64,000 nt of DNA, taken from Verrucomicrobiota bacterium (lineage in GTDB: Bacteria > Verrucomicrobiota > Verrucomicrobiia > Limisphaerales > SXTU01). The DNA lies in contig VHDH01000001.1 of NCBI GenBank assembly GCA_016871445.1, positions 875 through 64,874 of the forward strand, read 5' to 3'. Made by a program: the position numbers and the translations under genes. Below, piece after piece: positions 3,840 to 58,998 of this stretch. The notes below the pieces were generated by a model that was not told the origin of the DNA, did no database searches, and saw only the letters and a list, made by a program, of their open reading frames with translations. Positions within the stretch are counted from its first letter, which is position 1, and each line of letters starts with the position of its first letter.

Positions 3840-3997
3840 GAGCTAAATACGCTGCATTTAAACCGAGGGTTTTAAAGAACTTTTGCAACGCTTGCCGACG
3901 AGTCACATGAACCGACCGAAATTACCACAGATCCAAAAAACTACGGCCGCAACAGAGTGACATTCAGAAGTTACCCCCAGGCTATCAAGCGGTTTAG

Positions 3998-41133: not shown

Positions 41134-41546
41134 AGTTTTCGTCTGGTTCCGCCGCTCGCGTTCGCGGCACCGCCCTTCTTGAGGTCATTCTTGCGCTTGC
41201 GCTCTTTGTTGTGGCCGCAGCCATCGTCACGAGCGGCATGAATGCTTCCACGGAGAATCTCAGCCGCCAGCGTCGCCATACCCACGCCGCCAATCTGGCT
41301 GCCACGGTGCTTGCGGAAATCCAGCTAGGTATTCGGCGCACGAGCGAAGTTGGCGAACAACCCTTCGCCGCGCCATTCGACCAGTGGACCAGCGAACTCA
41401 TCGTCACCCCAACCGAGACTGAGTCGGGCGAGGCCAGCGGTCTCCTGCGCGTGGAAGTCGTCATCCGACACCAGGATTCCGCGCTTGTTCGCCGCCTTGC
41501 CCAAATCATCCGCGTGCCGCCCGCCTCGACTCGCGCCGCTTTTTAA
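41130..41546 (+). CDS. gspI: Minor pseudopilin, GspI-like
   Basis: RG|TALLEVILALALF prepilin motif, short globular domain, LRVEVVI; overlaps the gspH stop. Confidence 0.75.
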   Translation: MKFSSGSAARVRGTALLEVILALALFVVAAAIVTSGMNASTENLSRQRRHTHAANLAATVLAEIQLGIRRTSEVGEQPFAAPFDQWTSELIVTPTETESGEASGLLRVEVVIRHQDSALVRRLAQIIRVPPASTRAAF

Positions 41547-43953: not shown

Positions 43954-45571
43954 CCGCGACGCTCTCCCTGCGTTCCCGTTCAAGAGGCCTACTGCCGGGC
44001 GCGCGAAACTCCCGTCGCAGGCAACCTCGCTAGACTTTGACAGCCGCTCGCTCCGTGTCGTCTCGCCTGGACTCAGCCGCATCGCGGTCGCCCCGCTAAA
44101 CTTGCCCGCTGATGCTGACCGCACTGATGCCGCCGTGCTTGGGGCCGCGTTGGCGACTGCGTTGGAGCAACTCAAACTCAAACCCGGCCCCGTAGTAATG
44201 GGCTTGCCGCGCGCTCAGGTGGTGCTCAAGACGCTCCTGCTGCCCGTCGTCGCGGACGTGAACGAACTCGCGTCCATCGTTCATCTGCAAGTCGGACGCG
44301 ACCTCCCGTTTCGGCTCGCGGACGCGGTGATTGATTTCCAAATCCTCCGCCAAATCGCGCCGCCTGCACCTAAACCCGACGTGAATGCCAAGCCCGGCGC
44401 AGAAGCACCCGCTGCGCCGCCGCCCAAGGTCGAAGTGCTCGTGGCTGTGGCGAAGCGCGAGGCCGTCGCGTTCTACCAACGCGTCGCGGAAGCGGCAGGC
44501 GTGAAACTCGTCGCGCTCGGCCTCTTGCCAAACGCCGGCGCGCGGTGCGTTGAGGCGTGTCGCGTCGTGGAACGGGGGCAACCCTTCGCGCTCGTGTCGC
44601 TGCGCGTGGATGAAGTCAGCATTGAGATCGCGTGTGACAGCGCAGTGCCGTTCAGCCGCGGTGCGGCATTGAAGCCAATGGACGCGAACGCGCCGGAGAC
44701 ATTCGTCAACGCCGCGACGATTGAAGCCGTCCGCAGCTTGCACAGTCACGGCGGCCAGGGCGCGGCAGGGTCACCCGCGAGGGTTTTCGTCAGCGGCGCG
44801 ACGGGCCAAGAAGCTGCGCTTGCCACTGCACTCGCCGCTCGCATGAGTGTGCCGGTGGCCGCGCTGGACACGGCGGCGCTCGACTTGCCGACGGAGGCGC
44901 GGGTGGACGCGGGCGGTTCCGCCGCCGCCATCGGCTTGGTGCTCGGCTACGCGGACACAAACGGGTTGCCGTTTGATTTTCTTAACCCGAAGCGTCCTGC
45001 CGTCCCGCGCGATATGCGGCGCGTGAAGATTCTTGCCGGCTTGGCCGTGACGGCGGCGTTGTTCATCGTCGTGGCGGGCATTCGGCATTGGCTCATCGGG
45101 AAACGCCAGACCGTGCTCGATGCCGTAACCGCCGAGGCTGTGCTTGCGGAGAAAAACCGACCTGCGTACCGGAAGGTAATTTCGCAGGCGGCCGTGGTGA
45201 ACGAGTGGGTCGGTGGCGAGCGCGACTGGCTGCTGCATTATGCGCACCTTAGCGCTGTGCTCCCGCGCAGCGAGGAGATGTTTCTCACATCCTTCGCGGT
45301 AAGTGGGCCGGGTGCATTAAGGCTGGGTGTGCGCGCGAAAAGTGGAGCGATTCTGGCGAAGATGGAAAAGCAGCTCCGCGCCGCCGGCTATGAGGTCAAG
45401 CCGCTTGCCATCACGCCGGGTGCGGACAAAAATGGCTATGAATTCCAGTCCACCGTCGAACTAGGTGTACCGGCGAAGCTCAAAATTGACACCACGCAAC
45501 TGCTGCCACCGGAGCGCCCGGCGGATGACGCTTCCCTCGACCCACCAGGACGCAGGAGAGGAGGCGGATGA
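43946..45571 (+). CDS. GspL-like (PilM-PilN type) assembly platform protein
   Basis: Cytoplasmic actin-like PilM features (LDFDSRSLR, VVMGLPRAQV, DLPF...AVIDF, VFVSG, AAIGLVL, FDFLNP), one TM, periplasmic PilN-like domain (LSAVLP, LRLGVRA). Confidence 0.75.
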   Translation: MADRDALPAFPFKRPTAGRAKLPSQATSLDFDSRSLRVVSPGLSRIAVAPLNLPADADRTDAAVLGAALATALEQLKLKPGPVVMGLPRAQVVLKTLLLPVVADVNELASIVHLQVGRDLPFRLADAVIDFQILRQIAPPAPKPDVNAKPGAEAPAAPPPKVEVLVAVAKREAVAFYQRVAEAAGVKLVALGLLPNAGARCVEACRVVERGQPFALVSLRVDEVSIEIACDSAVPFSRGAALKPMDANAPETFVNAATIEAVRSLHSHGGQGAAGSPARVFVSGATGQEAALATALAARMSVPVAALDTAALDLPTEARVDAGGSAAAIGLVLGYADTNGLPFDFLNPKRPAVPRDMRRVKILAGLAVTAALFIVVAGIRHWLIGKRQTVLDAVTAEAVLAEKNRPAYRKVISQAAVVNEWVGGERDWLLHYAHLSAVLPRSEEMFLTSFAVSGPGALRLGVRAKSGAILAKMEKQLRAAGYEVKPLAITPGADKNGYEFQSTVELGVPAKLKIDTTQLLPPERPADDASLDPPGRRRGGG

Positions 45572-46611
45572 ACACCCGCGAGAAAAAACTTGCCGCGATG
45601 GTTCTCGGCACTGCGGCGCTCTTCAGCGGTTTGCTGGGCATTCGCACGTTTATTTCGCGCCCGCTTGTAGACCTCGATAAACGGATCGTCGCCGCTCGCG
45701 AGCGACTCGGAAAAATCCAGACCGAACGGCGGAATTTCTTCACTGCCGAGGACCGCTTGAAGTCGCTGACCAAGCTTGCTTATGCCGACACGACCGACGA
45801 GGCCAGCGCGCGTTCGGGCGAGGTGCTGACGAAACAGATTGTTCAAGCGGGCTTGGACGAAGGCGACTTCACCCGGCTGCCGCTTGGCCCGCGCAAACTT
45901 CGGGGCGCGAGCGAGATCGGCTGGAGCGTACAGGGCGATGGGCCGTTGGCGAGGGTCGTGAACTTGCTCTTCATCCTTGAACAATCGCCGCATTTGCTAC
46001 GGATCGAAGGGTTGGTGCTCTCGCAGGCGGAGAAGCCTGGCGACGTGCGCGTGCGCTTCCGCTTCCTGACGCTCGTGCTGGATCCCGCGCCCGAGGTCAA
46101 GCGTGAGGTGCTCACGGCGAAGGTGGACTTAAAGTCTGAAGCCCGCCACGTCTTCGACGGCATCGTCACGCGGGACTTACTGCGGCCTTACATTAAACGT
46201 CCGCCGCCACCGCCGGTCGTCGCGAAGACAGGTAGCAATTCCTCTGCTTCCGCGGTGCCCGCCACGCCGCCGGGACCACCTGGCCCGGAGACTTTCCGCG
46301 TCGTCTCGCTCTCCGAATGGCAGGGCCAGCCCGAAATCCACGTGCGCGACCTCACCGCGCAGAAAACAGTTCGTTATAAGTCGGGTGATACGTTGGCGGG
46401 AGGAACCATTGTGCTGGTGGATTATCGTGCACTGCCATTGCCCGGCGGGAATGGGTTGCTTTCCGACAGCCGGGTCATCGTGCGCGTGAAGGACGAGTTC
46501 TTCGCTATTGAGCGCGGCCAGACATTGGGAGATTTACGGAAGCTGGAACTTGCACAGCTCCCGCCAGAATTGGCAAAATCTGTTGGTAACCTGCCGCGCA
46601 CGACACCATGA
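45568..46611 (+). CDS. Putative GspM/PilO-like protein fused to a C-terminal GspC-HR/PilP-like beta domain
   Basis: MNTREKKL + TM + coiled coil + ferredoxin-like segment (VQGDGPLARVVNLLFILEQSPHLLRIEGL), Pro-rich linker, then EIHVRD...RYKSGDTLAGGTIVLVD...VIVRV. Confidence 0.6.
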   Translation: MNTREKKLAAMVLGTAALFSGLLGIRTFISRPLVDLDKRIVAARERLGKIQTERRNFFTAEDRLKSLTKLAYADTTDEASARSGEVLTKQIVQAGLDEGDFTRLPLGPRKLRGASEIGWSVQGDGPLARVVNLLFILEQSPHLLRIEGLVLSQAEKPGDVRVRFRFLTLVLDPAPEVKREVLTAKVDLKSEARHVFDGIVTRDLLRPYIKRPPPPPVVAKTGSNSSASAVPATPPGPPGPETFRVVSLSEWQGQPEIHVRDLTAQKTVRYKSGDTLAGGTIVLVDYRALPLPGGNGLLSDSRVIVRVKDEFFAIERGQTLGDLRKLELAQLPPELAKSVGNLPRTTP

Positions 46612-46624
46612 ACATTTTCCCCTT

Positions 46625-49600
46625 ATGAACCGAACGCACCCTCCGCTCCTCGCCCTTGCGCTCCTCGTCGGCACGTTCACCCTCGCGGCGCAGGACGCGC
46701 CGAAGGCCCCGGCTGTTGCCGTGCCCGCCACGAACGCCCCCACGAAGGCCGTCACCATCGCGCCCAGCACCGCCGCGCCCGCGTCCAACGCGCGCAACAT
46801 TCGCTTTCAGTTCGATGGCATTCCTTACGGCGATGTCATCGAACGGTTTGCGCAAATGGCGGGCAAGCCACTTCTCGCTGGCAACAAACCCGAGGGCACG
46901 CTGACCTACAATGACCCCAACGCCTACACTTATGGCGAGGCGCTCGACACGCTCAACGTCGTCCTCGCGATGAAGGGCGTCATGCTCGTCGAGAACGCGA
47001 ACTACCTCCAACTCGTGCCTTTTAAGGAGCTGCCGTCCACGCCGCTGAAGCTCCTGCGCGGCGCCGCACCCGTCGGAGACGTGCGGCCCGGCGAGGTCGT
47101 TACCGCCGTGCTCGACGCTAAGAACGTAGACTCGAAGGAAATCACGGATTCGCTCACCTCGATGCTATCGAGCGCCGGTTCCATGGCCGTGCTGCCGCGC
47201 GGGCGCGGCATCATCATCACCGACCGGCTGGCGAATATTCAGCGCATCAAAACTCTGCTCGCCACCATCGACATCGAGGCACCAGCCGAGCGAATGATGA
47301 AAACCTTCGCGCTGCAAAATAGCTCTGGGGCGATAGTTGCCGACCTGCTCAACCGCACTTTCGGTGTCGCCACCGCACCCAGGCGCCAAGAGTTCAACCC
47401 AAATACCAAGGCGATGCAAATCCTGCCGCCGGACCCGAACGAATACATCACTGCGGTCTACGACGACGCCTCGCGCACGATGGTGCTATTCGGCCCGCGC
47501 GAGCGCATCGCGCTGGCGGAGGAGTTGATTGCGAAGTTCGAGCAACGCGAAGGCCCCTCCGGCGATGTGCGCATTTACCAGCTGCAGTCCACCAAGGCCG
47601 ACGAAATCGCCATGATTATCCGACAGGCGATTCCCGGCGTTGCCGAGCCAAAAGAAACTGGCTCTGCGGCCGCCACCAAGGCGCGCGTCATCGCCGACTC
47701 ACAGCAAAACCGCCTCATCGTCGCGTCGCCCGTGGCAGGACAGTTGGAGCAGATTGATCTGCTCATCAGCCGCGTGGACAAAGGCACGACCGGTAACGTG
47801 AATACCAACAACGCGCCGCTCCGGGTTCAGTCAGTGATGCTCACCAAAGTCTTCCGTCCCCGTGCGACCGAGCCAAAGGACTTCGCCCAAATTGTTACAC
47901 AGGCGCTCACGCGGCGCGACCCCGGCGGGCGCGCCGGCATCACCGCCAGTGTCATTCACGATCCCGGCAGCAAGACGGTAGTAATCTCCGGTACGCTTGG
48001 CGACCTCCAGACCGCGACGGAGATTCTCACACAGTTGGAGACTGGCACTTCCCAACCGCAGGCGCTCCAGACGCGTTTCATCGAAGTCGGCACGGCGGCG
48101 GACGCGAAGCGCCTGTTGCCGCTCGTGGAAGAGCTTTACCGCAACCAAATGAGCGGCGCGGGCGCGCTCGACTCCGGCGCGCACGCCAAGCTGATGAGCG
48201 ACGATAACGGGAGGCTCATCGTGACGGCGAGCGAGGCACACCTGATTCGGGTGGAGGAGCTTGTAAAGCAACTGCGTGGAAAAAACGGCGTGGTGATGAA
48301 CCGCCAGCTTTCGATCATTGCACTTAAAAACACCAAGTTGGATGCGATCCTCGCTGGTTTTGAGAAGCTACTCTCTGACCGCATGGCCGACCGACGCTTC
48401 GAGGGCCAGCCAAAGCCCTCGGTCGTGCCAGATAACGCGAACAACCGGGTGCTCGTCACGGCAACCCCTGAGCAGTTGAAGGAGATTGAGCAACTCGTGC
48501 AAGTGGTGGATGTCGCGCCTGCAACGCAACGCCGCGAGATGGTTGTCCTCCCCGTGCGCGCCAAGACCCCGGCGGAAATCATCACCCTCGCCACGCAACT
48601 CCTCGCACAGATGGGTGGCGCTGGCGCGGACCCCCAGATGGAGCCCAAGCTCATCCCCGACGCGAGCGGTAAACAAATCATTTTGCTCGCTGCCCAGAAA
48701 GATTTGCAGCGTGTGCGCGAGTTGGTCACTCAGCTCGACACGGCCACCATCCAGAACCTCGCCCGCCAGTTCCGTTCGGTGGAACTCAATGCGCGCTCGG
48801 CAGCGGAGCTAACCCCGCTAGTCACGCAGCTTTATCAGGAGCAACTTAAGGGGCAGAACGAGCCGCCCGGCGGCGCGGCCACTGTGCTCGCTGACGCCAA
48901 GAACAACCGCATCATGGTCAGCGGCGCGGACGCGGAAATCACCCGTGTCGAGGCCATCATCCGCCAGCTCGACCCCGCCGGCCGGAAGCCCGCCCGTGAC
49001 GAAACGCGCGTCTTTCGCTTGCGTGCCGCGCTGGCCGCCGAAATTTCCGGCCTCGTCGAAAAGAGCCTTAATGCGCAGGCACAGACGGTAAAAGTGCTCG
49101 TGGACGCGCGCAGCAATAGCCTCATCCTCAGTGGGGAGCCGGATGCGGTCGAGGCCGCATCGAAAGTCATCCAACAGCTCGACACGCCCGGCGACGTGCA
49201 GCCGCGCGAGATGCGTGTGATGGAGTTGAAGCAGGGCGACGCTGCCGCCATCGCCGCGCTCGCCACGCCGCTGGTCACCGAACTGCTCAAGAGCCAACGC
49301 GGGCCGGAGTATTCGCCCACGGTCAAAATCATCGCCGACGCTGCCTCGAACCGACTCATCATCAGCGGGCCGCGCAACGAGCTGCTCGCGGTTAATACCA
49401 TCGTTGAACAACTCGACCAAGCGCCCGAAGGCGCGGGCGGCGCGCGCGTGTTCAAGCTCAATAACGCCACCGCGCTCAAGGTTGTTGGGGTCGTCTCCAA
49501 CGCGATGGTGAAGTTTGACGCGCGCAACCAGCCCATCCGCCGGATCACCGTAAGTGCAGACCCGGATTCAAACAGTATTGTCGTCGCGGGTACACGGCAG

Positions 49601-52600
49601 GACCTGAAGGACGCCGAGAACATCATCCAGCGCCTTGATAATGAGGGCATTGACCCGTCGAGTCTGGAAAAACCCAAGGGCATGAAGCTTGTCGAAGTGC
49701 GCGGCGATGCTGACGCGCTCGCTGCGTTGGCCACGCGCATCTTCACAGCGCAAGCCGGGCGCAGCGCGTTGACGAATCTCGTGAGCATCACACCGAACGG
49801 CAAACGTCTTATCGTGCTAGCGCCTGAGGCGATGCTGCCGCAAATCGAGGCACTGGTGAACTCGCTTGATGCAAAGCCTGATGAGTTGCAACGCGAGCTG
49901 CATCCTATCGTGCTTAAGAACGCCTCCGCCACGGAACTGCTGCCCAAGGTCACGGCAATTTACTCCGAGCAGTCCGCCGGCAAGACACAGAAGCCCGCGA
50001 CGATTTACGCCGACGCCAGCGGCACGCGGCTCAATGTCTTCGGCACGAAGCAGCAGGCCGAGGCGATTCAGCAGATTGCCGACACGCTCGCCGGGAGCGC
50101 GCCCGCGACGCGCGAGACGAAGCTGATTGACCTCGGCAAACTCACCGAAGCCAAGCGTGTGATGGCGCTCGCACTCCAGCTCTACAAAGACCAGTTCGCC
50201 GCCAACCCTCAGCTCGGCCCTGCCGACGCGCAGATGGTCAGCGACGGCGTCTCTGGCCGCGTCATCGTCAGCGCGCGCGCGGACCAGATGAAAGCCATCG
50301 AGGACATCTTCAAGCGGCTCGAACTCACGCCCGCCGCCTCGGCCGCGCGCGAGACGCGCATGATTGAAGTTGGCTCCGCGAACGACGTGGCGCGGCTGCT
50401 GCCCATTGTGCAAAAGCTTTATGCCGAACAGTGGAAAGACCGACCCGAGACCGACCCGGCGGACGCGCAAATCGTCGCCGACCCGCAGGGCGGGCGCGTC
50501 ATTGTCACAGGCCGGCCGGAGCACGTGAAGGAGATTGAAGGCATCTTGCAGAAGCTCGGCACGGCTAAGGCCAAGCCGCAGGCGCGCGAGACGCGACTCT
50601 TCGATCTTACCACCGCCAGCGCGACAGAATTGGTCACGACCTTGAAGGTGCTTTACACCGAGGACGCCAAGGCGCGCTTTGGCGCACAGACGCCGGATAC
50701 GCTAATCATGGCCGACACGAGCGCGAACCGGTTAATTGCGGTGGGTGACACGGTGGAGCTCGAAGCTGTCGCCGGGCTGGTGAAGAAACTCGATTCCAGC
50801 GCCGCGCAAAGTTCAACGGCGCGGGTATTCAAGATTAAGTCCGCCGATCCGGCGAAGGTTGCCGAGGTGCTCACCACCGCACTGGTGCGCTTTGACGCGC
50901 TGGGCCGCGCGCAGAAGCGCGTGAGCGTCTCAGTGGACGCGAAGACCCGCACTCTCATCGTGACCGGCGATGCCAAGGAACTCGCCGCTGTTCCCACGAT
51001 CATTGAACAACTCGATCAGTCACTCGGAGAACAGCCGGAGCGGAAAATACAAACTGTGCAGCTTAACTCCACGACCCCGAACACGCTGCTTTCGCAGGCA
51101 CGCAAACTTTACGACGACCAAATTAAGACGCAGCCGGAACTCACCGTGTCCGAGTTGCTCGTGATGGATGATGCCAGTGGCAGCCAGCTCATCCTCGCCG
51201 GCAGCGACGCGCAGTTGAAGTTGTTCACCCGCATCTTAGATGACCTGCAAAAGCTTCAAGTCACGCCCGGTGAGCGGGTGACTAAGTCGTTCGACCTTGG
51301 CCCAGCCGATGAGGTCACGCGGCTTGTGCCACTGGTGCGCTCGTTCTACGAGGAGAAGTGGCGCACGCGGCCGCTCTCGGACCCGGCGGACGCGACGTTC
51401 CTGCCTGACACGCGCAACGGCCGCGTCATTGTCACGGGTCGCACGAACCACCTTGTGGAGATTGAGGCGTTGCTCGGACAGTTGCGCGATGGGGCGGCGA
51501 TGGAGCCGCGCACCACGCGTTTTTTTGACCTGACCAGCAGCGATGCCGGCATGCTGGTCGCCACGTTGCGCCCGCTGTATCTCGAACAAGCTAAACTGCG
51601 GCCCGGTGCACCGGCGCAGAATACGCTGATCCTCGCGGAGACAAATTCCAACCGCCTCATCGTGACCGGTACGGCTAATGAGCTGAGCGTGGTCGAGCAA
51701 CTCGTCCGCGAGTTGGACAAGGCCAGCCCGCAGAGCGCCATTGCGCGTATCTTCAACCTTAAGACGGCCGACCTCGCGCAAGTCTCGGAAATCCTCACCA
51801 ACGCCTTTGTGACGGCAGACCGCATCGGTCGCTCGACCAAACGCATCAGCGTGGTGGTGGACGCCAAGAATCGCAGCTTGATTGTCACAGGCGAGGTACG
51901 TGATTTGCAGGCGGTGGGGAAATTGATTGAGCAAATCGATGCTTCGCCCGCGAGCACAAACCAGGTGCGCTCGATGCGAGTCTTCGCGTTGAAAGGCCGG
52001 CGGGCGACGGAGACCGCGCCGAAGATTCGGCAAGTGTTTGAGGAGCGCGCGCGCAGCTTGCCGGAGGTCGGCACAGCGGGCGCGGTCATCGTCGAAGACA
52101 TCCCCGGCAACCAGTTGATTTTCGTCGGCACTGAGGCGCAGCTCGCGCTCATGCAGGAAACCGCCGACGTAATGGATAAAGCTGGTACAACGCTCGGCCG
52201 CGAAGTGCGGGTGTTTCCGTTGGAGCGTAATTCTGCTGACGCCGTGGTGGTGATGCTCAACCGCCTGTTCCCGCGTCAGACCGGCACCACGGATCGCGAG
52301 GACCGCATGCTCATCAGCGCCGGCGGCGACGACAACACGCTCATCGTGGACGCGACCCGAACGGATTTAGACAAGGTTGAGCAGCTGCTGCGCGTGATGG
52401 ACGCTTCACCCGCCGGCGACAAGACGACTTTCCACGCCGTACGTCTCACGAAGGGCAAAGCCGAGGAAGTTGCGACCGCTGTGACCGAGTCGTTCACCGC
52501 GAAGCTGGGCCGGGGAAAACTACCGCGCACGACGGTGACGCCCGTCAATGGTGCAAACACGCTGCTCATCAACGGCCCGAACGGTGAGGTCGAGAACGTG

Positions 52601-55600
52601 CTAAAAATCATCCAGTCGCTCGATGTGGAGATGAAGGGAGACGAGGTCGAGATTCGCATTTACAAGTTGGAGAACGGTACGGCGAAGGAAGTTTCTCTCA
52701 TCATTGAGCAGTTGCTTCAAGGGATGGGCCGCGCCCGCGCCCGCGCCGCGGCGAATGTGACCGTGGACCCGCGCGCTAACTCGCTCATCATTTCTGGCAC
52801 GCCCGCTCACTTCCGCGTGGTGGAAAAGGTGCTGCCGACGCTCGACAAAGCCCCTGAGCGCGCTGACCGCGATGTGCAGTTCGTGTGGCTGAAGAAGGCG
52901 AAAGCGTTCGACGTGAGCGCGAAATTGGAGGCGCTGTTTAGCGAGCGGCCCAAGGGAGAGCAACCGCTCATCGAGCCGGACGTGATGAACAATTCCCTCA
53001 CCGTCATCGCCAAGCGTGCCGACCTCGCGCAAATTCAAGACCTCATCACGCGCCTCGACGAGCAGAGCAAAGACAACAGCATCCAAGTCCGCCTCCGCCC
53101 GCTGGACCGCGTCGTGGCCGAGCAGATGGCGAAGATGTTGCAAAGCATCTATCCGCAGATGTCGCGTGGCACCGTGCGAGTGGTGGAGAAATTGGATCCA
53201 CTTAAGCCCGCCGCGACCAACGCGCCCGCTACCAAAGCCCCGGCCAATGCGCCTGCTGCCCAGCCGCAAGCTGCCGTCGCGGACACGAACGCAGTCCCCG
53301 AGGTCGTCATCGCGGTGGATAAAAACGCAAACTCGCTTTTGCTCTCCGGTCCAGCATCGGAATTGGACAACGTCGAGCGCATCATTAGCGACCTCTCGCT
53401 GAACTTTTACAGCAACGAGGCCGAGTTCCGCCTGTTCCCGCTCAAGGACGCTGACCCCATCGTCGTCGCGCGCACGTTGAATGAGTTGCTCCGCATGCCG
53501 CCGGTGGCCGTCACGCCGCAACGGCCCGGCGAACCGGTCCGAACGGTGGAGCAACCGCCACGCATCACCGTCGTGGCCGAGCAGCGCACCCGCAGCGTGG
53601 TGGTGCGCGCGCGGCCTACGGACTTTGCGTTGATGGAGTCGCTAATCAAGCAACTCGACAGCGCGGGCCAGACAGCCCAGCTCGATTTTCGCAGCGTGCC
53701 ACTCACCAATGCGCCGCCGGAGAAAGTCCTGCCGCTCGTGCAGCAGCTGGTCACCCAGCTCAACCTCATCCGCCCCGGCGAGCCGCTCACGGTGGTGATT
53801 GACCCCCGTTCGCGCGGGCTGCTGGTCGTCGCGCGCGAGGCCGTCATCCTTCAAGTGGAGAAGATGATTCAATCGCTCGACAAACCTGCGCCTTATATCG
53901 AGGCCGAGGTGATGGTGTTCCAATTACGGAAGGCGAATGCAACCTCCCTCGCGCTTGTGTTGCAAAACATGATTCGCCCCGGTCCGCAGGGGACGCAGTC
54001 GCCTGAAGCCCGCGAGTTGCAAGAGCAAATTCGCCGCCTGCGCGTGCTGGGCGAAGATGGGGAGGCCGTCTCGCTTGACCTCACCAAGCCCATCAAAATC
54101 AGTGCCGACGGCACGGGCGGCGGCAACCGCCTGCTACTCACCTCCACGCCGGACAACCTCAAGGCACTCGCTGCCGTCGTCGAGTTGATGGACACGCCGC
54201 AAATCACCGAGGGCGTGAACGTCCGCATCATCAAACTCCAGCATGCCGACGCAGCGACCGTCTCGACCACGTTGCAGAGCATCTTCACCCAGGGCCGCAC
54301 GCTTGCCACCGGCCCCGGCGGGCCGGGCGCGCAGCCCGAGGGCCTAACCGGCAAGGCACTCGTCAACCCCGTCGGCATCGGTGTGGACGCGCGCTCGAAC
54401 ACGCTCATCCTCAGCGGTCAGAACGAATCCATCGAGCTGGCCTCGAAACTGGTGGAAGACCTCGACAAGGCAGTGGACCATCCCGTCACGGAAGTCCGCC
54501 TGTTCCGGCTGAAACACGCGTCTGCCGCGCGGTTACTGCCGATGCTGCAAAGTGTCTTCGCTGAAGGCGCGCCGGTGCCTGGCACGGAGGGTTTGAAGAC
54601 GCAGGTTACTCGGCTTCGCACGTTGCGCGAGGCAAACACGCCGCGCGTCACTGATGCCGCGAAATCCCGCGCCGCGCTCGCCATGCAGGCGGATGATTTC
54701 TCGAACATCCTCATCGTTGCCGCTCGCAGCGACATGCTGCCGCTCATCGCCGATGTCGTAGAGCAACTCGATATTCCCTCCGCCTCCGGCTTGGAAACTG
54801 TCCGCATCTTCCCACTCGCGCATGCGGACCCAGCGGCGGTGCAAAAGGTGCTGGCTGACCTCTATGCTGGTCAGCGCGCCGGCACCGTTCGTAACGAAGA
54901 TAAACCCGTCATCACACTCGATGACCGCACCGGCTCGCTCATCGTTGCGGGCAACGCAAAAAGCTTCGCCATAATCGAGGGCCTGCTTCAATCGCTCGAC
55001 CGCCAGTTGCCCTTCGACCTGCGCGACATTCGCATCCTGCCGCTGGAGAACGCGGACGCAAATGTCGTCGCTGGCACATTGCAGAAGCTCATGGATGCGC
55101 GGCTCACGCAGCGCGCGCAGTTGAACAAGTCCCAGGCCGACGCGCTTAAGGTCATTATCCTCGCCGATCAGCGTAGCAACGCCCTGCTTGTGGGCGGCGG
55201 TCGCGACGCCTTCGATATGGTGCAGATGCTCGCGAAGCAGCTCGACACACCCGGAGCGGCGTTAAGTGGACGCATCCGCTTGGTAGCCGTTCAATTCGCG
55301 GACGCGCGCCTGTTGGCTGCGACGCTGACGACGCTCTTCGAACAGCGTTACTCCACCGCCCGCGCGACCGACGTGCAGCGGAACAAGCCGGTGATTCTCC
55401 CTGACCCGCGCAGCAACAGCTTACTCATCACCGCCAGCCAGGAGGACAACCGTGCGATTGATGAGCTGCTGCAACGCCTCGACACGCGGTTAGACAACCC
55501 GGCACTCCAACTCACCGTGCTGCCACTCAAGCACAACGACGCTGCGCGCGTGGCTGCAATGATTGAGAGTATCTTCGCCGCGCGCCGCACCGCGCAGACC

Positions 55601-58444
55601 CTCCCCGGTCAGCCGCCCTTACCCAACACGCAAATCAAGCTGGAGCCGGACCCGCTGAACAACTCGCTCGTCGTTTCCGCCAGCAAGGAGAACGTGGAGT
55701 TGATTCAGGACTTGCTGAAGAAACTGGACGCCGAGCCGGCCATCGCGGGCGGCGTGCTAGAGGTGTTCCCGTTGCAGTTCGCGGACGCCACGCGCGTCGG
55801 GGCATTACTGACTTCACTCGTGCAGCAGGGGCTTTACCGGCCCGGCCAGTTACCCGGCGCGCCGCGCGCGACCTCCATGGACAAGCTCGCCGTGACTGTG
55901 GACCCGCGCAGCAATTCACTCTTTGTTAGCGCCAGCCCAGAAACCATGACTGTGGTGCGCGAGGTCATTAAACGCATGGACGTGCAGGAGCAGAACCTGA
56001 CCGGCGACGTGAAACTCTTTCAACTTAAGAACGCCCGGGCCAGCACGCTCGCCGCGACACTCACGCAGTTTTTCACCGCCAAGCAGGCCGCTGACACCGC
56101 ACTCATCGCCAACGCTAATCAGCGCCGCCTGCCCGCCACCGTTATTGCTGACGACCGCGTGAACACACTGCTCGTGACCGGCGGGAAGGAAGCGTTCGAC
56201 TTCGTTGAGCGCCTGCTCCCGCAACTCGATGGCGAGGGGACCTTCAACAAGCTGAATTTCCGCGTGTTCCCGTTGAAGAAGGCCACGGCGCAGAAACTAC
56301 AAGCGACGTTGCAGCCTATCTTCGCGAATCGCCCGCCCCGTGTGCGAGGCGAGCCGAACGACCCCATCACCATCATCGCCGATGCGTGGGTAAATGCGTT
56401 GCTCGTGGGCGCAAACGTTGAGGACCTGAGCGCGATCGAGTCACTCATCAACCAACTTGACACCGATCCGATGCCAAACGGACTCGCCATCCATGTCTTC
56501 CCGCTGGCCAAGGCGGACGTGCGGAAGGTGGCGCTGACCGTGCAAGGCTTGTTCCGCGATGGCCCGCCCGGCCAACCCGGCCAACAGACGCAGGTGCAAG
56601 TCACGGCGGACGAGCGCATCAACGCGCTGGTCGTGTCCTGTGGCGAGGTGGACGCCCGGCGCATAGCCGAATTGGTAAAGCGCCTCGACACCGAGCAAGT
56701 CGCGCGCGTGGCCGAGATCCGTGTCTTCCCGCTAAAGCACGCTCGCGCCGAGACGCTTTCAACCATCCTCAACACTGCGTTGAACACCAAGCCCACGCCG
56801 CTTTCCGACCAACAAAACCCTAACGCGCAGTCAGTGCTTCAATTCATCACGCGTTCGAACGAGGGCCGCGAGCTGATCACGGCAGCGTTGAAGGAAGCCG
56901 TCTTGATCACGCCTGACCCACGCATGAATTCGCTCATCGTGAGCGGTCCAGTGGATTACATGGGCCTGCTGGAACAGATCATCAGCCGGCTCGACGCAAG
57001 CTCGCCGCAGGAGGCGAAGATTAAAGTCTTCGCCCTAAAGAACTCCTCTGCCCGCGCCATGGCGGACATTCTCACGCAAATGTTCCGCATGACGGCAACG
57101 GCGACGACGGCCAGCCAGCGCACAATCCAATACACCCTTGTTCGCCCTGGCGGCACAAATGACGCCGCCAGCGCAACGCTCGGCTCAGCGGAACAGACTT
57201 CGCTCACAGTCACCGTGGATCCACGCACGAACAGCTTGCTCGTGGGCGGCACGGATCATTACGTCAAGATGGTTGAGCAGATCATTGAGTCGCTCGATAC
57301 CTCCACGGCGAATGACCGGCGCACAGAAGTAATTCGTTTGAAAAACACGCAGTCCTCCGACGTGGCAGGCGCGGTCCGTAACTTCCTCGACCAAGAACGC
57401 CAACGCGTGACGCAAGTGCTCGGCGCGGATGCCGTCGGAGCCGCACAGCAGATGCTTGAGCGGGAAGTTGCCGTGGTGGGCGAGACGAACAGCAACACGC
57501 TCCTCCTCTCCGCCAGCCCGCGTTACTTCACTCAGGTACAAGACTTGATCAAGGAGCTCGATAAGTCCCAGCCGCAGGTGATGATCCAGGTTGTGCTAGC
57601 AGAAGTGGCACTGAACGAGGGGCGGGATATTGGCTTGGAGTGGAATGTGTCCGGTGGACCGACCTATTCGGCCGGCCTTGGATTGGGTTTAGCGAACGCG
57701 GTGAGGAACGGTTTCACGGCTGCGCTTACAGGCGGTGATACTACCTTTATTCTTAAGGCGTTAAAGGATCAATCCAAGTTAGAAGTCCTGAGCCGGCCGC
57801 AGATCGTCACGGCGGACAACAAGCCTGCGAGTATCAACGTGGGCCAGCGCGTGCCGCTCATCACCGACAGCCGTGTGACTGTGCAGGGCGACACTATCAA
57901 CTCCTTCCGCTACGAAGACATCGGCGTTAACCTGACCGTCACGCCCAAGATCAGCCTCGACGGCTTTGTGAAGCTCGAGTTGGGCACGACTAATTCTTCG
58001 CTCGCCAGTTCCGACGTTAAGATCAATGCGTCCGCTACCGTACCTGTCATCAACCAACGCCGCGCCAACACCACCGTGAGCGTGCAGAATGGCCAGACCA
58101 TCATCATCGGCGGCCTTATCGGCACACAGGAAGACCGCCGCGTGCGCCGTGTGCCGGTGCTCGGCGACATCCCCTACCTTGGCGCAGCGTTCCGCAGCAC
58201 CAAGATCACGAAAGAGCGGAAAGAGCTGTTGATCTTCCTCACGCCGCAGATTCTCGCGAACAACAATCAGGATCCGGTGCCGCTGACTGATCCGGCCAAT
58301 GCGCTGCGCGAACAGATAGACCGTTCCCGCATCAGCCCAGAACTCAAGCGCAACGAGTTCAACCAGCCAGTGCTGGAGCCAATTTTTCCGGCCCCACCGG
58401 CCCCGCCGACTACCCCCAGCGGACGTAAGCCCACCGGTTCATAA
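46625..58444 (+). CDS. gspD: Giant secretin (GspD family), about 3,939 aa: signal peptide, N0, 43 N1/N3-type repeats, secretin core
   Basis: Signal peptide MNRTHPPLLALALLVGTFTLAA; N0 (IRFQFDGIPYGDVIERFAQMAG); repeats of R.F.L..A.A...L..L...D.RSN.LIV.G......I..LD; core QVMIQVVLAEV...LSRPQIVTADN...GQTIIIGGLI...VPVLGDIPYLGAAFR...ELLIFLTPQI. Confidence 0.92.
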   Translation: MNRTHPPLLALALLVGTFTLAAQDAPKAPAVAVPATNAPTKAVTIAPSTAAPASNARNIRFQFDGIPYGDVIERFAQMAGKPLLAGNKPEGTLTYNDPNAYTYGEALDTLNVVLAMKGVMLVENANYLQLVPFKELPSTPLKLLRGAAPVGDVRPGEVVTAVLDAKNVDSKEITDSLTSMLSSAGSMAVLPRGRGIIITDRLANIQRIKTLLATIDIEAPAERMMKTFALQNSSGAIVADLLNRTFGVATAPRRQEFNPNTKAMQILPPDPNEYITAVYDDASRTMVLFGPRERIALAEELIAKFEQREGPSGDVRIYQLQSTKADEIAMIIRQAIPGVAEPKETGSAAATKARVIADSQQNRLIVASPVAGQLEQIDLLISRVDKGTTGNVNTNNAPLRVQSVMLTKVFRPRATEPKDFAQIVTQALTRRDPGGRAGITASVIHDPGSKTVVISGTLGDLQTATEILTQLETGTSQPQALQTRFIEVGTAADAKRLLPLVEELYRNQMSGAGALDSGAHAKLMSDDNGRLIVTASEAHLIRVEELVKQLRGKNGVVMNRQLSIIALKNTKLDAILAGFEKLLSDRMADRRFEGQPKPSVVPDNANNRVLVTATPEQLKEIEQLVQVVDVAPATQRREMVVLPVRAKTPAEIITLATQLLAQMGGAGADPQMEPKLIPDASGKQIILLAAQKDLQRVRELVTQLDTATIQNLARQFRSVELNARSAAELTPLVTQLYQEQLKGQNEPPGGAATVLADAKNNRIMVSGADAEITRVEAIIRQLDPAGRKPARDETRVFRLRAALAAEISGLVEKSLNAQAQTVKVLVDARSNSLILSGEPDAVEAASKVIQQLDTPGDVQPREMRVMELKQGDAAAIAALATPLVTELLKSQRGPEYSPTVKIIADAASNRLIISGPRNELLAVNTIVEQLDQAPEGAGGARVFKLNNATALKVVGVVSNAMVKFDARNQPIRRITVSADPDSNSIVVAGTRQDLKDAENIIQRLDNEGIDPSSLEKPKGMKLVEVRGDADALAALATRIFTAQAGRSALTNLVSITPNGKRLIVLAPEAMLPQIEALVNSLDAKPDELQRELHPIVLKNASATELLPKVTAIYSEQSAGKTQKPATIYADASGTRLNVFGTKQQAEAIQQIADTLAGSAPATRETKLIDLGKLTEAKRVMALALQLYKDQFAANPQLGPADAQMVSDGVSGRVIVSARADQMKAIEDIFKRLELTPAASAARETRMIEVGSANDVARLLPIVQKLYAEQWKDRPETDPADAQIVADPQGGRVIVTGRPEHVKEIEGILQKLGTAKAKPQARETRLFDLTTASATELVTTLKVLYTEDAKARFGAQTPDTLIMADTSANRLIAVGDTVELEAVAGLVKKLDSSAAQSSTARVFKIKSADPAKVAEVLTTALVRFDALGRAQKRVSVSVDAKTRTLIVTGDAKELAAVPTIIEQLDQSLGEQPERKIQTVQLNSTTPNTLLSQARKLYDDQIKTQPELTVSELLVMDDASGSQLILAGSDAQLKLFTRILDDLQKLQVTPGERVTKSFDLGPADEVTRLVPLVRSFYEEKWRTRPLSDPADATFLPDTRNGRVIVTGRTNHLVEIEALLGQLRDGAAMEPRTTRFFDLTSSDAGMLVATLRPLYLEQAKLRPGAPAQNTLILAETNSNRLIVTGTANELSVVEQLVRELDKASPQSAIARIFNLKTADLAQVSEILTNAFVTADRIGRSTKRISVVVDAKNRSLIVTGEVRDLQAVGKLIEQIDASPASTNQVRSMRVFALKGRRATETAPKIRQVFEERARSLPEVGTAGAVIVEDIPGNQLIFVGTEAQLALMQETADVMDKAGTTLGREVRVFPLERNSADAVVVMLNRLFPRQTGTTDREDRMLISAGGDDNTLIVDATRTDLDKVEQLLRVMDASPAGDKTTFHAVRLTKGKAEEVATAVTESFTAKLGRGKLPRTTVTPVNGANTLLINGPNGEVENVLKIIQSLDVEMKGDEVEIRIYKLENGTAKEVSLIIEQLLQGMGRARARAAANVTVDPRANSLIISGTPAHFRVVEKVLPTLDKAPERADRDVQFVWLKKAKAFDVSAKLEALFSERPKGEQPLIEPDVMNNSLTVIAKRADLAQIQDLITRLDEQSKDNSIQVRLRPLDRVVAEQMAKMLQSIYPQMSRGTVRVVEKLDPLKPAATNAPATKAPANAPAAQPQAAVADTNAVPEVVIAVDKNANSLLLSGPASELDNVERIISDLSLNFYSNEAEFRLFPLKDADPIVVARTLNELLRMPPVAVTPQRPGEPVRTVEQPPRITVVAEQRTRSVVVRARPTDFALMESLIKQLDSAGQTAQLDFRSVPLTNAPPEKVLPLVQQLVTQLNLIRPGEPLTVVIDPRSRGLLVVAREAVILQVEKMIQSLDKPAPYIEAEVMVFQLRKANATSLALVLQNMIRPGPQGTQSPEARELQEQIRRLRVLGEDGEAVSLDLTKPIKISADGTGGGNRLLLTSTPDNLKALAAVVELMDTPQITEGVNVRIIKLQHADAATVSTTLQSIFTQGRTLATGPGGPGAQPEGLTGKALVNPVGIGVDARSNTLILSGQNESIELASKLVEDLDKAVDHPVTEVRLFRLKHASAARLLPMLQSVFAEGAPVPGTEGLKTQVTRLRTLREANTPRVTDAAKSRAALAMQADDFSNILIVAARSDMLPLIADVVEQLDIPSASGLETVRIFPLAHADPAAVQKVLADLYAGQRAGTVRNEDKPVITLDDRTGSLIVAGNAKSFAIIEGLLQSLDRQLPFDLRDIRILPLENADANVVAGTLQKLMDARLTQRAQLNKSQADALKVIILADQRSNALLVGGGRDAFDMVQMLAKQLDTPGAALSGRIRLVAVQFADARLLAATLTTLFEQRYSTARATDVQRNKPVILPDPRSNSLLITASQEDNRAIDELLQRLDTRLDNPALQLTVLPLKHNDAARVAAMIESIFAARRTAQTLPGQPPLPNTQIKLEPDPLNNSLVVSASKENVELIQDLLKKLDAEPAIAGGVLEVFPLQFADATRVGALLTSLVQQGLYRPGQLPGAPRATSMDKLAVTVDPRSNSLFVSASPETMTVVREVIKRMDVQEQNLTGDVKLFQLKNARASTLAATLTQFFTAKQAADTALIANANQRRLPATVIADDRVNTLLVTGGKEAFDFVERLLPQLDGEGTFNKLNFRVFPLKKATAQKLQATLQPIFANRPPRVRGEPNDPITIIADAWVNALLVGANVEDLSAIESLINQLDTDPMPNGLAIHVFPLAKADVRKVALTVQGLFRDGPPGQPGQQTQVQVTADERINALVVSCGEVDARRIAELVKRLDTEQVARVAEIRVFPLKHARAETLSTILNTALNTKPTPLSDQQNPNAQSVLQFITRSNEGRELITAALKEAVLITPDPRMNSLIVSGPVDYMGLLEQIISRLDASSPQEAKIKVFALKNSSARAMADILTQMFRMTATATTASQRTIQYTLVRPGGTNDAASATLGSAEQTSLTVTVDPRTNSLLVGGTDHYVKMVEQIIESLDTSTANDRRTEVIRLKNTQSSDVAGAVRNFLDQERQRVTQVLGADAVGAAQQMLEREVAVVGETNSNTLLLSASPRYFTQVQDLIKELDKSQPQVMIQVVLAEVALNEGRDIGLEWNVSGGPTYSAGLGLGLANAVRNGFTAALTGGDTTFILKALKDQSKLEVLSRPQIVTADNKPASINVGQRVPLITDSRVTVQGDTINSFRYEDIGVNLTVTPKISLDGFVKLELGTTNSSLASSDVKINASATVPVINQRRANTTVSVQNGQTIIIGGLIGTQEDRRVRRVPVLGDIPYLGAAFRSTKITKERKELLIFLTPQILANNNQDPVPLTDPANALREQIDRSRISPELKRNEFNQPVLEPIFPAPPAPPTTPSGRKPTGS

Positions 58445-58455
58445 GTTTTCCACCT

Positions 58456-58998
58456 ATGATGGCCCGCTTCTTGCCGCGGCGGCTGCTGCCCGCCGCTCCG
58501 CTTCCGCTTTGTTCGGGCGTTTGGTTGCTGGTGCTGATCTTGGCGCTCGCTGGCGGACCAGGCTGCGGTTCATTACGGCTGGGCGGCGATGATCAAGAAG
58601 TGCAGGAATTGCATCTGCTGGTGGCGCCGGGCGCGTTGCCATCCCTGGCTTCGCCCCGCCCCACCGGCCTTGTGGTGCGGGTGTTCGCCAGCAGCCGCGT
58701 ACGGGCGAAGGGCCTGCCCATCCGCGCAGGCACCCTCGAAATCATGGCCTATGACGGGACTATCCCGGACGCCGCATCACCCGCCCGCCCACCCGCACAG
58801 CTGTGGGTCTTTCCGGCGGCGAAGCTCGCGGCCCTCGCCGCTACCAGTTCACTTGGCACCGGCTATGAGTTGGAACTTCCATGGCAGGGGCCGCGTCCGA
58901 CGGCCGGCCGGCTGGTGATCATGGCCCGCTTGGTGCCGCCCCGCACCGGCCCCGCGATTTTCACCGCGCCAAGCGTGATCCCCAACGGGCTGAAGTAA
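58456..58998 (+). CDS. Putative lipoprotein of unknown function (candidate pilotin)
   Basis: Basic N-terminus, hydrophobic stretch VWLLVLILALAGGPG|C with an atypical lipobox; 11 bp after the secretin stop; beta-rich mature part. Confidence 0.6.
   Translation: MMARFLPRRLLPAAPLPLCSGVWLLVLILALAGGPGCGSLRLGGDDQEVQELHLLVAPGALPSLASPRPTGLVVRVFASSRVRAKGLPIRAGTLEIMAYDGTIPDAASPARPPAQLWVFPAAKLAALAATSSLGTGYELELPWQGPRPTAGRLVIMARLVPPRTGPAIFTAPSVIPNGLK

Follow-up and report, generated by a model that had tools for sequence, protein, structure and literature searches.

A GspD-like secretin with 43 tandem N-domains encoded in a type II secretion operon of a freshwater verrucomicrobium

Few outer-membrane machines of bacteria have been studied as thoroughly as secretins, and the known secretin pores comprise three to six ring-building modules. 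The stretch of DNA analysed here (the window: 64,000 nucleotides, positions 875 to 64,874 of contig VHDH01000001.1, assembly GCA_016871445.1, from a Verrucomicrobiota bacterium of the order Limisphaerales) encodes a secretin with 43 such N-domains in addition to N0. The observation is confirmed, and it raises the question to which secretion system the protein belongs, whether so long an array is authentic and maintained, and how it might be arranged within the cell envelope. All coordinates given below are window positions on the plus strand.

Domain layout and genomic context

The giant secretin gene (46625..58444) is a single stop-free frame in the ORF translation and encodes 3939 aa, with a mature product of 422.8 kDa. 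Read from its earliest start codon, a TTG, the frame spans 46508..58444 (3978 aa); the ATG at 46625 is favoured as the start because five of ten fetched orthologues share the same signal-peptide N-terminus beginning with MNR. The signal peptide (46625..46690, aa 1-22) was delimited by eye, and the orthologues L018, L021, L022, L024 and L025 begin alike. It is followed by a probable N0 domain (46796..47029, aa ~58-135) and by N1, which is repeat R01 (47090..47281, aa 156-219), both placed by alignment to the corresponding domains of E. coli GspD (5wq7). Subsequently, 42 further Secretin_N domains, R02 to R43, are arranged head to tail (47291..57571, aa 223-3649) and lead into the secretin core (57572..58255, aa 3650-3877). 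A C-terminal tail of 62 aa, which together with the stop codon occupies 58256..58444, matches no family and could only speculatively be read as a pilotin-binding S-domain.

The number of N-domains follows from two complementary scans. Pfam Secretin_N matches the protein in 37 stretches (E=0, 1138.8 bits), while an HMM trained on the repeats of this protein yields 43 matches. Two of these are the halves of R27 (53084..53401, aa 2154-2259), which lies about 55% along the chain and is divided by a Pro/Ala-rich low-complexity insert of ~30 aa, leaving 42 repeats within aa 223-3649, each with an i-Evalue of 1e-13 to 1e-25. N1 is weak with this model and exceeds the Pfam Secretin_N cut-off in a separate scan of the N-terminus (E 4e-7, 30.6 bits versus 28.2); hence, the 42 HMM repeats and N1 give a total of 43. 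Pfam Secretin (PF00263) is found at aa 3712-3877 (E 8.1e-49, 165.9 bits versus a gathering score of 27.5) and reaches 172.3 bits (E 8.8e-51) with the C-terminus scanned separately. The Pfam N0 model (PF21305) scores below its cut-off of 27 (21 bits, E 2.9e-4); aa 69-385 align to 5wq7 including its N0 (E 1.8e-8), and the N-terminus is collinear with N0-N1-N2-N3 of this GspD, with equally short inter-domain linkers. Repeat lengths range from 64 to 106 aa, and 40 of the 42 junctions between R01 and R43 measure 3-6 aa. An earlier note, made from the letters alone, had described a single frame with signal peptide, N0 and 43 repeats, and had proposed Pfam Secretin_N and Secretin scans to verify the count; the 37 Secretin_N stretches and the one Secretin match, together with the HMM and N1, bear this out. 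Its core start near nt 57575 agrees with the one found at nt 57572 (aa 3650), and its repeat size of 65-115 aa compares with the 64-106 aa measured.

With respect to class, NCBIfam GspD (TIGR02517) scores 1141.1 bits against a curated cut-off of 351.35, a total inflated by the repeats, and its best stretch (aa 3428-3881) spans model positions 126-594 of 600. The PilQ model (TIGR02515) scores 430 bits, below GspD, and NCBIfam SctC also matches. At the level of fold, an AlphaFold2 model of R14-R16 comprises three beta-alpha-beta-beta-alpha domains (pLDDT 82.7), whose best Foldseek matches are the N-domains of the type II secretion (T2SS) secretins ExeD (6i1x), GspD (5wq7) and EpsD (6i1y), followed by weaker ones to 7ah9, 5tcr and 6dv3.

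The genes upstream complete the picture of a type II secretion operon. They encode a GspE-type secretion ATPase of 556 aa (36794..38464; Pfam T2SSE E 1.1e-132, MshEN), a GspF-type inner-membrane platform protein of 400 aa (38525..39727; T2SSF E 4.1e-55 in two stretches), a GspG-type major pseudopilin of 173 aa (39907..40428; T2SSG E 1.4e-19, N_methyl) and a GspH-like minor pseudopilin of 233 aa (40432..41133; GspH E 2.3e-4, 22.1 bits versus a cut-off of 21). A 138-aa ORF in the GspI position (41130..41546) has no Pfam match, and a tblastn homologue is scored as present in 31 related loci. Next come a GspJ-like minor pseudopilin of 264 aa (41549..42343; T2SSJ E 0.0025, under the cut-off, homologue in 31 loci) and a GspK-type minor pseudopilin (42340..43953; T2SSK_1st E 3.5e-14, T2SSK, HHH_3), which at 537 aa is long for its family. 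A protein of 541 aa (43946..45571; PilM_2 E 1.1e-7, 46 loci) joins a PilM-like cytoplasmic domain to a transmembrane segment and a periplasmic part, and this PilM/N-like protein probably takes the role of GspL. Directly ahead of the secretin gene, a bitopic protein of 347 aa (45568..46611; no Pfam match, homologue in 48 loci) is modelled (pLDDT 75.4) with a long N-terminal helix, a PilO/GspM-like alpha/beta domain, a Pro-rich linker and a C-terminal beta domain. Foldseek relates it to PilO (3jc8_Oa, E 9.9e-4), 2rjz and PulM (8a9x), and weakly to PilP (3jc8_Pa, E 0.05); the C-terminal beta domain is a candidate N0-docking module. Between 21 and 48 related loci, depending on the gene, contain homologues of these upstream genes. 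The next downstream ORF (58456..58998, 180 aa) features a hydrophobic N-terminus followed by a Cys and has no Pfam match; tblastn matches it in 50 related loci, it lies just past the secretin gene in ten fetched orthologue loci and also downstream in a closed genome, and its ESM Atlas relatives form unnamed clusters labelled Verrucomicrobiota or Planctomycetota. A sulfatase is encoded in the neighbourhood. GspC has no Pfam match in the operon, and Rfam has none within the window.

A PilQ identity, that is, a type IV pilus secretin, was rejected: the Pfam scan detects no AMIN domain in the protein, the PilQ score is the lower one, and the operon holds a single ATPase besides pseudopilins of the GspK and GspH types. 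The giant protein is the sole secretin encoded together with GspE, F, G, H, J and K, and its sequence and gene neighbourhood identify it as the GspD-class outer-membrane secretin that belongs to a complete type II secretion operon in a freshwater bacterium, whose close relatives carry the labels Limisphaerales or Verrucomicrobia.

Authenticity, distribution and maintenance of the array

That the gene is an assembly artefact, or dead or processed, could be argued from the source genome being a 236-contig bin, from breaks in some relatives and from the lack of an RNA run among the matches listed, the last of which has no bearing on expression. This reading is nevertheless highly improbable, and its artefact and pseudogene versions are largely refuted. 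Tandem Repeats Finder detects no DNA-level tandem repeats in the gene, contigs from four sequencing runs tile it without a listed indel (30 of 30 bins covered), and an intact orthologue of 3212 aa is present, in an unchanged gene order, in a closed genome of one contig. Moreover, more than 100 full-length relatives were assembled independently. The sequence is present in 20 listed DNA runs, which are lake or freshwater metagenomes. Joints listed in the run contigs have sides of at most 21 nt and a depth far under that of the main contigs, and are treated as cross-matches stemming from repeats or from foreign organisms.

The repeats themselves are highly diverged, as the earlier note had observed, with a mean identity of 22% and a maximum of 56%. 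By contrast, identity to an orthologue found in a different family of the order is 61% repeat by repeat, and the two arrays are collinear without any repeat-unit indel. Since position-by-position identity across families (61%) so exceeds that between repeats (22%), the array looks like a defined architecture rather than a string of interchangeable beads. In eight within-genus pairs, dN/dS amounts to 0.09-0.15 over the array and 0.11-0.21 over the secretin core, a similar purifying selection in both. The proposal of an old, maintained expansion that is no assembly artefact thus withstands scrutiny.

The giant secretin is not unique; it belongs to a conserved, oversized family, known here from genomes and metagenome bins. 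An orthologue is present in 81 of 301 genomes of the source's order and in none of a phylum-wide sample of 400 further genomes, while metagenomic clusters of giant secretins run into the hundreds and reach 6165 aa. All of these are machine-annotated, in line with the earlier suggestion that long secretins may already be annotated in PVC genomes. Among 113 complete relatives, 42 strongly detected repeats occur in 49, 41 in 14 and 43 in 12. Across lineages the number extends from ~14 to 64, including lineages with about 33, 43, 54 and 64 repeats; repeat number tracks the tree and is stable within clades. In a representative search, 115 of 140 newly fetched proteins measure at least 3000 aa, and an apparently complete N-terminus is likewise found in 115 of the 140, with 14-53 strongly detected repeats, a number that the HMM underestimates in distant proteins; because this search is ranked by summed score and favours proteins with many N-domains, it reveals many giant clusters, not the length distribution of secretins.

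Short relatives were inspected individually. Of 17 gene calls below 2166 aa, located on contigs that are about 16-1230 kb long, 16 begin within a repeat and lack a signal peptide, and were rejected as genuine short forms; the other, of 1785 aa with 14 repeats, may be genuine. In addition, the orthologous fragment at locus L065 contains stop codons, and these broken relatives could be sequencing errors or pseudogenes.

Possible arrangement of the array in the envelope

The current view of the paryphoplasm is that it represents an enlarged periplasm, and Ellin514 is a verrucomicrobium that we take to be a member of the source's order. According to the excerpted text of PMC2647929, Ellin514, which belongs to subdivision 3, shows a paryphoplasm. 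The best explanation overall, to which we assign a probability of roughly one half, is a T2SS secretin of the GspD class whose stacked rings would form a conduit across a wide gap, with repeat number as ruler. In place of the customary N1-N3, its periplasmic part contains an array grown to 43 tandem N-domains, with the probable N0 retained at the far N-terminus and an ordinary core at the C-terminus; 12-15 protomers would assemble like known secretins, and the N-domains would pile ring on ring. With a ring height of 3-4 nm, extrapolated from the overall dimensions given in the excerpted PMC5745081, 44 rings would yield a continuous periplasmic conduit of ~130-175 nm and 5-6 MDa. The distal N0 ring would then dock on an inner-membrane platform of the PilM/N-like and PilO/GspM-like proteins encoded just upstream, the pseudopilus and folded exoproteins would be carried over an unusually wide inter-membrane gap, for instance a PVC paryphoplasm, and repeat number would set the length, as a ruler specific to each lineage. 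Counted in favour of this plausible idea are the stacking precedent of Thermus PilQ, the paryphoplasm of the subdivision-3 verrucomicrobium, the collinear repeats with their 3-6-aa junctions, the tree-following repeat number and the conserved N0 at the tip. On the other hand, by our reasoning, it would be mechanistically awkward for a pseudopilus to act as a piston across about 150 nm.

Structure prediction leaves room for a looser organisation. The monomer model of R14-R16 has a pTM of 0.38 and linker pLDDT below 50, so that the inter-domain geometry is undefined. A four-copy complex prediction of the same fragment, that is, with fewer copies than 12-15, scores 0.25 against a mark of 0.42 and favours neither a stacked nor a loose array. 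It was based on an orthologue alignment; a mixed alignment of orthologues and sliding three-repeat paralogue windows (718 columns) was out of register and was dropped. As a less likely alternative, rings might form only near the core, while the other ~35-40 domains of each protomer would be semi-flexible strings, a partly ordered curtain or tether without a continuous tube, which might bind peptidoglycan, capture substrate or reach an inner-membrane platform at variable distance. The undefined orientation of the domains fits this possibility, as does the Pro/Ala-rich insert of R27 near mid-chain, a possible hinge; a similar run lies at relative position 0.55-0.56 among the first 40 relatives, and some internal PA-rich run occurs in 46 of 114 full-length relatives. 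However, interchangeable beads should homogenise or vary fast, whereas the array keeps 61% positional against 22% internal identity and a clade-stable count, and its uniform 3-6-aa linkers, devoid of long flexible spacers, resemble those of stacked GspD N1-N3.

A bearing on the width of the gap itself comes from three further secretin systems of ordinary size in the same genome, namely a 785-aa secretin (N0 and two N-domains) next to a GspE-like ATPase, a TPR-secretin of 955 aa and a split pair of N0 plus three N-domains and a core. Because these coexist with the giant form, short secretins can cross the envelope and a gap of >100 nm is not general. This cuts against the simplest enlarged-periplasm reading and, in turn, is compatible with a curtain in a periplasm of variable width. 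The window holds no pointer to a prostheca or other appendage.

The internal pattern of the array bears on whether a chain of ring-forming domains need be linear. R14-R17 resemble R18-R21 in a four-unit super-repeat, the pairs R15/R19, R16/R20 and R17/R21 being 48-56% identical, and lag 4 gives the highest mean repeat-to-repeat identity. Together with the tight pairs of Thermus PilQ rings (PMC5745081, excerpted text), this would suit an arrangement in which all domains form rings and the chain is folded back, or the rings are paired or concentric, producing a thick-walled vestibule or a cage with a length far below 130 nm. Linkers of 3-6 aa give little room for chain reversal, which makes such packing unlikely. 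Furthermore, we know of no secretin in which concentric N-domain layers are seen.

The array might also serve chiefly as a structural pillar, a spacer or ruler of the enlarged periplasm that locally keeps a set spacing between the outer membrane and either the inner membrane or the cell wall, secretion being secondary or lost. A lineage-specific, conserved repeat number and a retained N0, which ranks among the best-conserved segments (identity 0.70 to L017 and 0.55 to L016), agree with this, as does the reported paryphoplasm (PMC2647929, excerpted text). Nonetheless, we regard it as improbable: the gene resides within a full T2SS operon with ATPase and pseudopilins, whose homologues occur in up to 50 related loci and whose gene order the closed genome keeps, and the core is constrained comparably to the array, which points to an active channel. 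A combination of both functions is doubtful, though less so, namely a rigid trans-paryphoplasm tunnel and pillar in one, in which a 44-ring tube of 5-6 MDa and >100 nm would fix the local membrane distance and let the T2SS export folded enzymes from its inner-membrane platform directly out of the cell, insulated from a widened, enzyme-filled periplasm, ~14-64 repeats being the envelope-width ruler in Limisphaerales and some Planctomycetota.

Significance and comparison with known systems

If stacked, the giant secretin would constitute the longest periplasmic channel known, as part of a family that is conserved, under selection and equipped with 30-60 or more ring modules, and would bear on trans-envelope machines in PVC bacteria, whose periplasm is sometimes greatly enlarged; lineage-specific repeat counts would offer a natural experiment on repeat number versus envelope width. 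If unstacked, it would still be an unexplained, costly 423-kDa design that purifying selection maintains in numerous bacteria of fresh water and soil. The literature searched (main texts, with subscription journals mostly outside) contains no description of secretins with tens of N-domains and, as the earlier note had supposed, no structural or functional account at such scale.

In the excerpted text of a review on PVC giant genes (PMC12673574), the terms 'type II secretion' and 'secretion system' do not occur. The giant secretin gene resembles those by its great length and its place in a genome of the PVC superphylum, and differs in having a clear family and operon context. With the type III secretion (T3SS) secretins InvG/SctC and proteins of the ring-building motif it shares the N-domain fold, reflected in weaker Foldseek matches and the NCBIfam SctC match; however, T3SS genes are absent nearby and the best matches are of the GspD type.

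The closest likeness in layout is to GspD itself (E. coli K12 5wq7, Vibrio 5wq8, Aeromonas ExeD 6i1x): signal peptide, N0 (probable in the giant form), short-linked beta-alpha-beta-beta-alpha N-domains and C-terminal core recur in both, as does the encoding with GspE, F, G, H, J and K. In contrast, the giant form has 43 N1-type domains instead of three and about 3939 aa instead of about 650, and its operon is devoid of a Pfam-detectable GspC and provides PilM/N- and PilO-like inner-membrane partners.

Thermus thermophilus PilQ, finally, forms a 350 A complex with six stacked rings, N0-N5, that spans a wide periplasm (PMC5745081, excerpted text); its extra beta-alpha-beta-beta-alpha ring domains lengthen the periplasmic channel, as those of the giant secretin would. 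PilQ, however, is part of a system for type IV pili and DNA uptake, and its stacking is solved, whereas we infer stacking for the T2SS-type giant secretin; against the 757 aa and six rings of PilQ, the latter would, in a stacked state, possess 44 rings, or about seven times the number.

Frame, domain architecture and authenticity

Starting from an ATG at 46625, which follows the stop of the upstream gene after 14 nt, the giant secretin is encoded by a stop-free frame of 3939 residues (46625-58444, + strand); counted from the first start codon, its longest ORF spans 46508..58444. The N-terminus comprises MNR followed by a hydrophobic stretch, and the same start is found in five of ten fetched orthologues. 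The Pfam scan put forward in the earlier note revealed 37 separate Secretin_N stretches across the whole protein (E=0) and a single Secretin domain (aa 3712-3877), and the GspD equivalog of NCBIfam reaches 1141 bits (cut-off 351). An HMM trained on the protein's own repeats detects 42 head-to-tail units (aa 223-3649, each E 1e-13 to 1e-25), counting as one the unit R27, whose match is split by a low-complexity insert. The preceding unit (R01, aa 156-219) is weak in this HMM; a scan of the N-terminus by itself brings it above the Pfam Secretin_N threshold, and in the alignment it pairs with N1 of E. coli GspD. Moreover, aa 69-385 are collinear with N0-N1-N2-N3 of the E. coli GspD chain 5wq7 (E 1.8e-8). 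Judged by these profile matches and the collinear alignment, the protein appears to consist of a signal peptide, N0, 43 N1-type domains (R01-R43 in chain order), a core from aa 3650 (nt 57572) and a 62-aa tail, in agreement with the domain count, of which 42 units derive from the HMM and one from Pfam, and the coordinates of frame and core proposed previously. Core, N-domains and operon place it in the secretin superfamily and, more specifically, with GspD. The Pfam N0 profile stays below its cut-off (21 bits against 27), and Pfam yields no GspC-type partner. The mature chain amounts to 422.8 kDa, and a 12-15-mer, with the oligomer number taken as in other secretins, computes to 5.1-6.3 MDa.

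The repeats share a mean identity of 22% (maximum 56%), and Tandem Repeats Finder detects no DNA-level tandem repeat in the gene, which leaves an assembler nothing to collapse or inflate. Contigs from four separately assembled runs, one of which is possibly the window's own source, cover 30 of 30 gene bins and differ solely by substitutions, no indel being listed. In addition, all ten orthologues fetched from other genomes are intact, and a closed single-contig genome of 2.74 Mb from the same order, Limisphaerales, harbors an intact 3212-aa orthologue in an unchanged gene order; this protein has a signal peptide, shares the N0 motif and contains 32 strongly detected repeats. These observations bear out the earlier judgement that the array is not an assembly artefact. 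Interrupted relatives occur as well, including the proteins P0131, P0135, P0142 and P0165: an orthologous fragment (L065:10001-10863) is crossed by seven stop codons, and among the inspected gene calls below 2166 aa on contigs of at least 16 kb, 16 of 17 begin within a repeat. Such cases could reflect sequencing errors, miscalled starts or pseudogenes.

Operon and genomic context

Among the large genes of a type II secretion system (T2SS) operon on the + strand, that of the giant secretin comes last. It is preceded by genes for the GspE ATPase (36794-38464), GspF (38525-39727), GspG (39907-40428), a GspH-like protein (40432-41133), an unassigned 138-aa ORF in the GspI position (41130-41546), a GspJ-like protein (41549-42343), GspK (42340-43953), a PilM-like protein of 541 aa (43946-45571) and a 347-aa protein without Pfam match (45568-46611), and followed by a conserved 180-aa ORF, likewise without Pfam match (58456-58998). 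According to tblastn, the upstream genes have homologues in 21-48 related loci and the 180-aa ORF in 50. The predicted structure of the 347-aa protein displays a long N-terminal helix, an alpha/beta domain resembling PilO/GspM (Foldseek: PilO 3jc8_Oa and 2rjz, PulM 8a9x) and, beyond a disordered Pro-rich linker, a small beta domain at the C-terminus; this beta domain's resemblance to PilP is weak (E 0.05), making it only a candidate N0-docking module. The 180-aa ORF starts with a hydrophobic N-terminus followed by a Cys and is again encoded downstream of the secretin gene in the closed genome. In the ESM Atlas it falls closest to unnamed clusters whose labels read Verrucomicrobiota or Planctomycetota, the two giant-secretin phyla; it could encode a pilotin-like partner.

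Immediately upstream of the operon resides a sulfatase gene (35242-36765). In G020, the genome of a 40%-identity relative, a sulfatase of 45% identity again adjoins the giant secretin (L016:44-1399), and GspE and GspF are now located downstream of the latter. The neighbouring sulfatase is a possible cargo of the system. Positions 1-4000 of the window exhibit a G+C content of 0.51-0.55 versus about 0.59-0.64 elsewhere, and no Rfam family was found across the whole window.

The window's own genome, a 3.49-Mb bin of 236 contigs, encodes three further secretin systems of ordinary size; DNA runs containing the window sequence are lake or freshwater metagenomes. The first is a 785-aa secretin with N0 and two N-domains adjoining a GspE-like ATPase, the second a 955-aa TPR-secretin. 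The third is split on contig C21 into a 627-aa gene product with N0 and three Secretin_N but devoid of a core (L082:5784-7667) and, 35 nt further on, a 397-aa product comprising a partial N-domain and the Secretin core (L082:7703-8896); an EF-hand ORF separates the pair from a PilM/PilN-like gene upstream. Since many genomes of the order contain frames of about 380-470 aa with such a core, the split may represent a conserved two-gene design.

Age, distribution and repeat number

Of the 19 other genomes in the genus, 18 contain a giant-type match, 11 of these with frames of 3877-4007 aa; the only shorter frame checked individually, in G006, is short because of a contig end. Orthologues of the genus are collinear at 79-89% identity without any repeat-unit indel. 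An orthologue from another family (61% identity) differs solely by a 19-aa gap in the low-complexity insert, and a third (40% identity) carries about three additional repeats and lacks about two. Because a repeat shares 61% identity with its positional counterpart in the other family versus 22% with other repeats of the same protein, the array is older than the compared families and its units are not interchangeable. The array dN/dS is 0.09-0.15 in eight within-genus pairs (Nei-Gojobori, dS 0.7-1.0) and does not exceed that of core plus tail in seven of them. Positional conservation and low dN/dS thus corroborate the old, maintained expansion noticed initially.

A four-unit super-repeat, in which R14-R17 resemble R18-R21 (50111-52950; aa 1163-1775), contains the highest pairs in the protein (R15/R19, R16/R20 and R17/R21, 48-56% identical), and lag 4 shows the highest mean identity among repeats; it records a block duplication inside the old array. 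R27 (53084-53401) carries a Pro/Ala-rich low-complexity insert of ~30 aa at about 55% of the chain, which may be a hinge or landmark. Many of the first 40 relatives carry a similar run at the same relative position (0.55-0.56), and 46 of 114 full-length relatives possess an internal one under a strict filter that the window's own copy just misses.

A query with the C-terminal 346 aa detects an orthologue (E 1e-85 or better) in 81 of 301 genomes sampled from the order, 60 of them with frames of at least 3000 and up to 5155 aa; matches then drop to E 1e-57 or weaker and to another kind of secretin, about 400 aa long. In a phylum survey of 401 genomes, of which the window's own and two more belong to the order and all remaining ones do not, no match besides the window's own genome emerged at E 1e-60. 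A protein database clustered at 90% identity holds 423 matching clusters of 2166-6894 aa with source names including Limisphaerales, Verrucomicrobia and Pedosphaera. The family is large and machine-annotated as 'secretin N-terminal domain-containing protein' or 'GspD', as had been suspected for PVC genomes. Its longest members (5111-6165 aa, 51-64 detected repeats; P0045, P0049, P0079 and others) are labelled Planctomycetota or Phycisphaerae, yet they are 48-54% identical to the final 540 aa of the giant secretin. Together with the missing matches in the other 400 phylum genomes, this may point either to transfer from one of the two PVC phyla to the other or to common ancestry followed by loss. 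Several bins carrying the gene bear implausible title labels (Klebsiella, Akkermansia muciniphila, Bifidobacterium, Proteobacteria, Kapaibacterium, Methylomirabilota; loci L031, L033, L034, L036, L039, L048, L054, L059 and others), rendering taxon names on members unreliable.

Among 120 listed members, 113 are complete, with 42 strongly detected repeats in 49, 41 in 14, 43 in 12, 46 in 11 and 48-64 in 19, and the counts group by clade in a C-terminal tree. Repeat number varies from lineage to lineage and is stable within each. Among 140 further representatives at 50% identity, 115 reach at least 3000 aa and complete-looking ones show 14-53 detected repeats, in a ranking that favours many-domain proteins and with an HMM that undercounts in distant ones.

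Possible assembly and comparison with known secretins

If the protomers assemble as in other secretins and their N-domains stack, 44 rings at 3-4 nm each, a height whose only source figure is the overall length of the six-ring Thermus PilQ complex (350 A including the secretin domain, in the available text of PMC5745081), would extend over 130-175 nm. N0 would dock on the inner-membrane platform encoded upstream of the secretin gene, and the system would span a very large distance between the membranes; that the repeat number is stable and characteristic of each lineage suits a length ruler. The compartment termed paryphoplasm is now interpreted as an enlarged periplasm, and strain Ellin514 presumably belongs to the order of the window organism. 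In the available text of PMC2647929, a paryphoplasm is documented in Ellin514, of verrucomicrobial subdivision 3.

The full stacked tunnel is given a probability of about one half, owing to the counter-evidence of ordinary secretins, an awkward piston and broken relatives. The ordinary-size secretins imply that a gap of >100 nm is not the general state of the envelope and would be local at best. A pseudopilus piston over about 150 nm would be awkward. Of the rival readings, a partly ordered curtain or tether in place of a tunnel seems unlikely, and a non-linear packing of the N-domains or a mainly structural pillar seems quite improbable. AlphaFold2 (58 aligned sequences) predicts R14-R16 as three confident beta-alpha-beta-beta-alpha domains (mean pLDDT 82.7) with linkers of pLDDT <50 and a pTM of 0.38, so that the folds are clear and their relative orientation is not. 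Inter-repeat junctions measure 3-6 aa in 40 of 42 cases.

Full-text literature searches retrieved no description of secretins with tens of N-domains, and a 2025 review on Planctomycetota (PMC12673574) treats giant genes only in general and never mentions secretion systems in its available text. The best Foldseek matches of R14-R16 are the N-domains of T2SS secretins (ExeD 6i1x, GspD 5wq7, EpsD 6i1y and XcpQ N0-N2; probability 1.00). In the solved GspD structure, N1, N2 and N3 stack as rings, and in the alignment the linkers between these domains of E. coli GspD (5wq7) equal those of the giant secretin in length. The protein is a GspD-class T2SS secretin whose 43 ring-type domains are maintained and specific to their positions, and its distal end carries a conserved probable N0. 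Giant secretins are real and widespread, and set apart by their scale from every characterised secretin.
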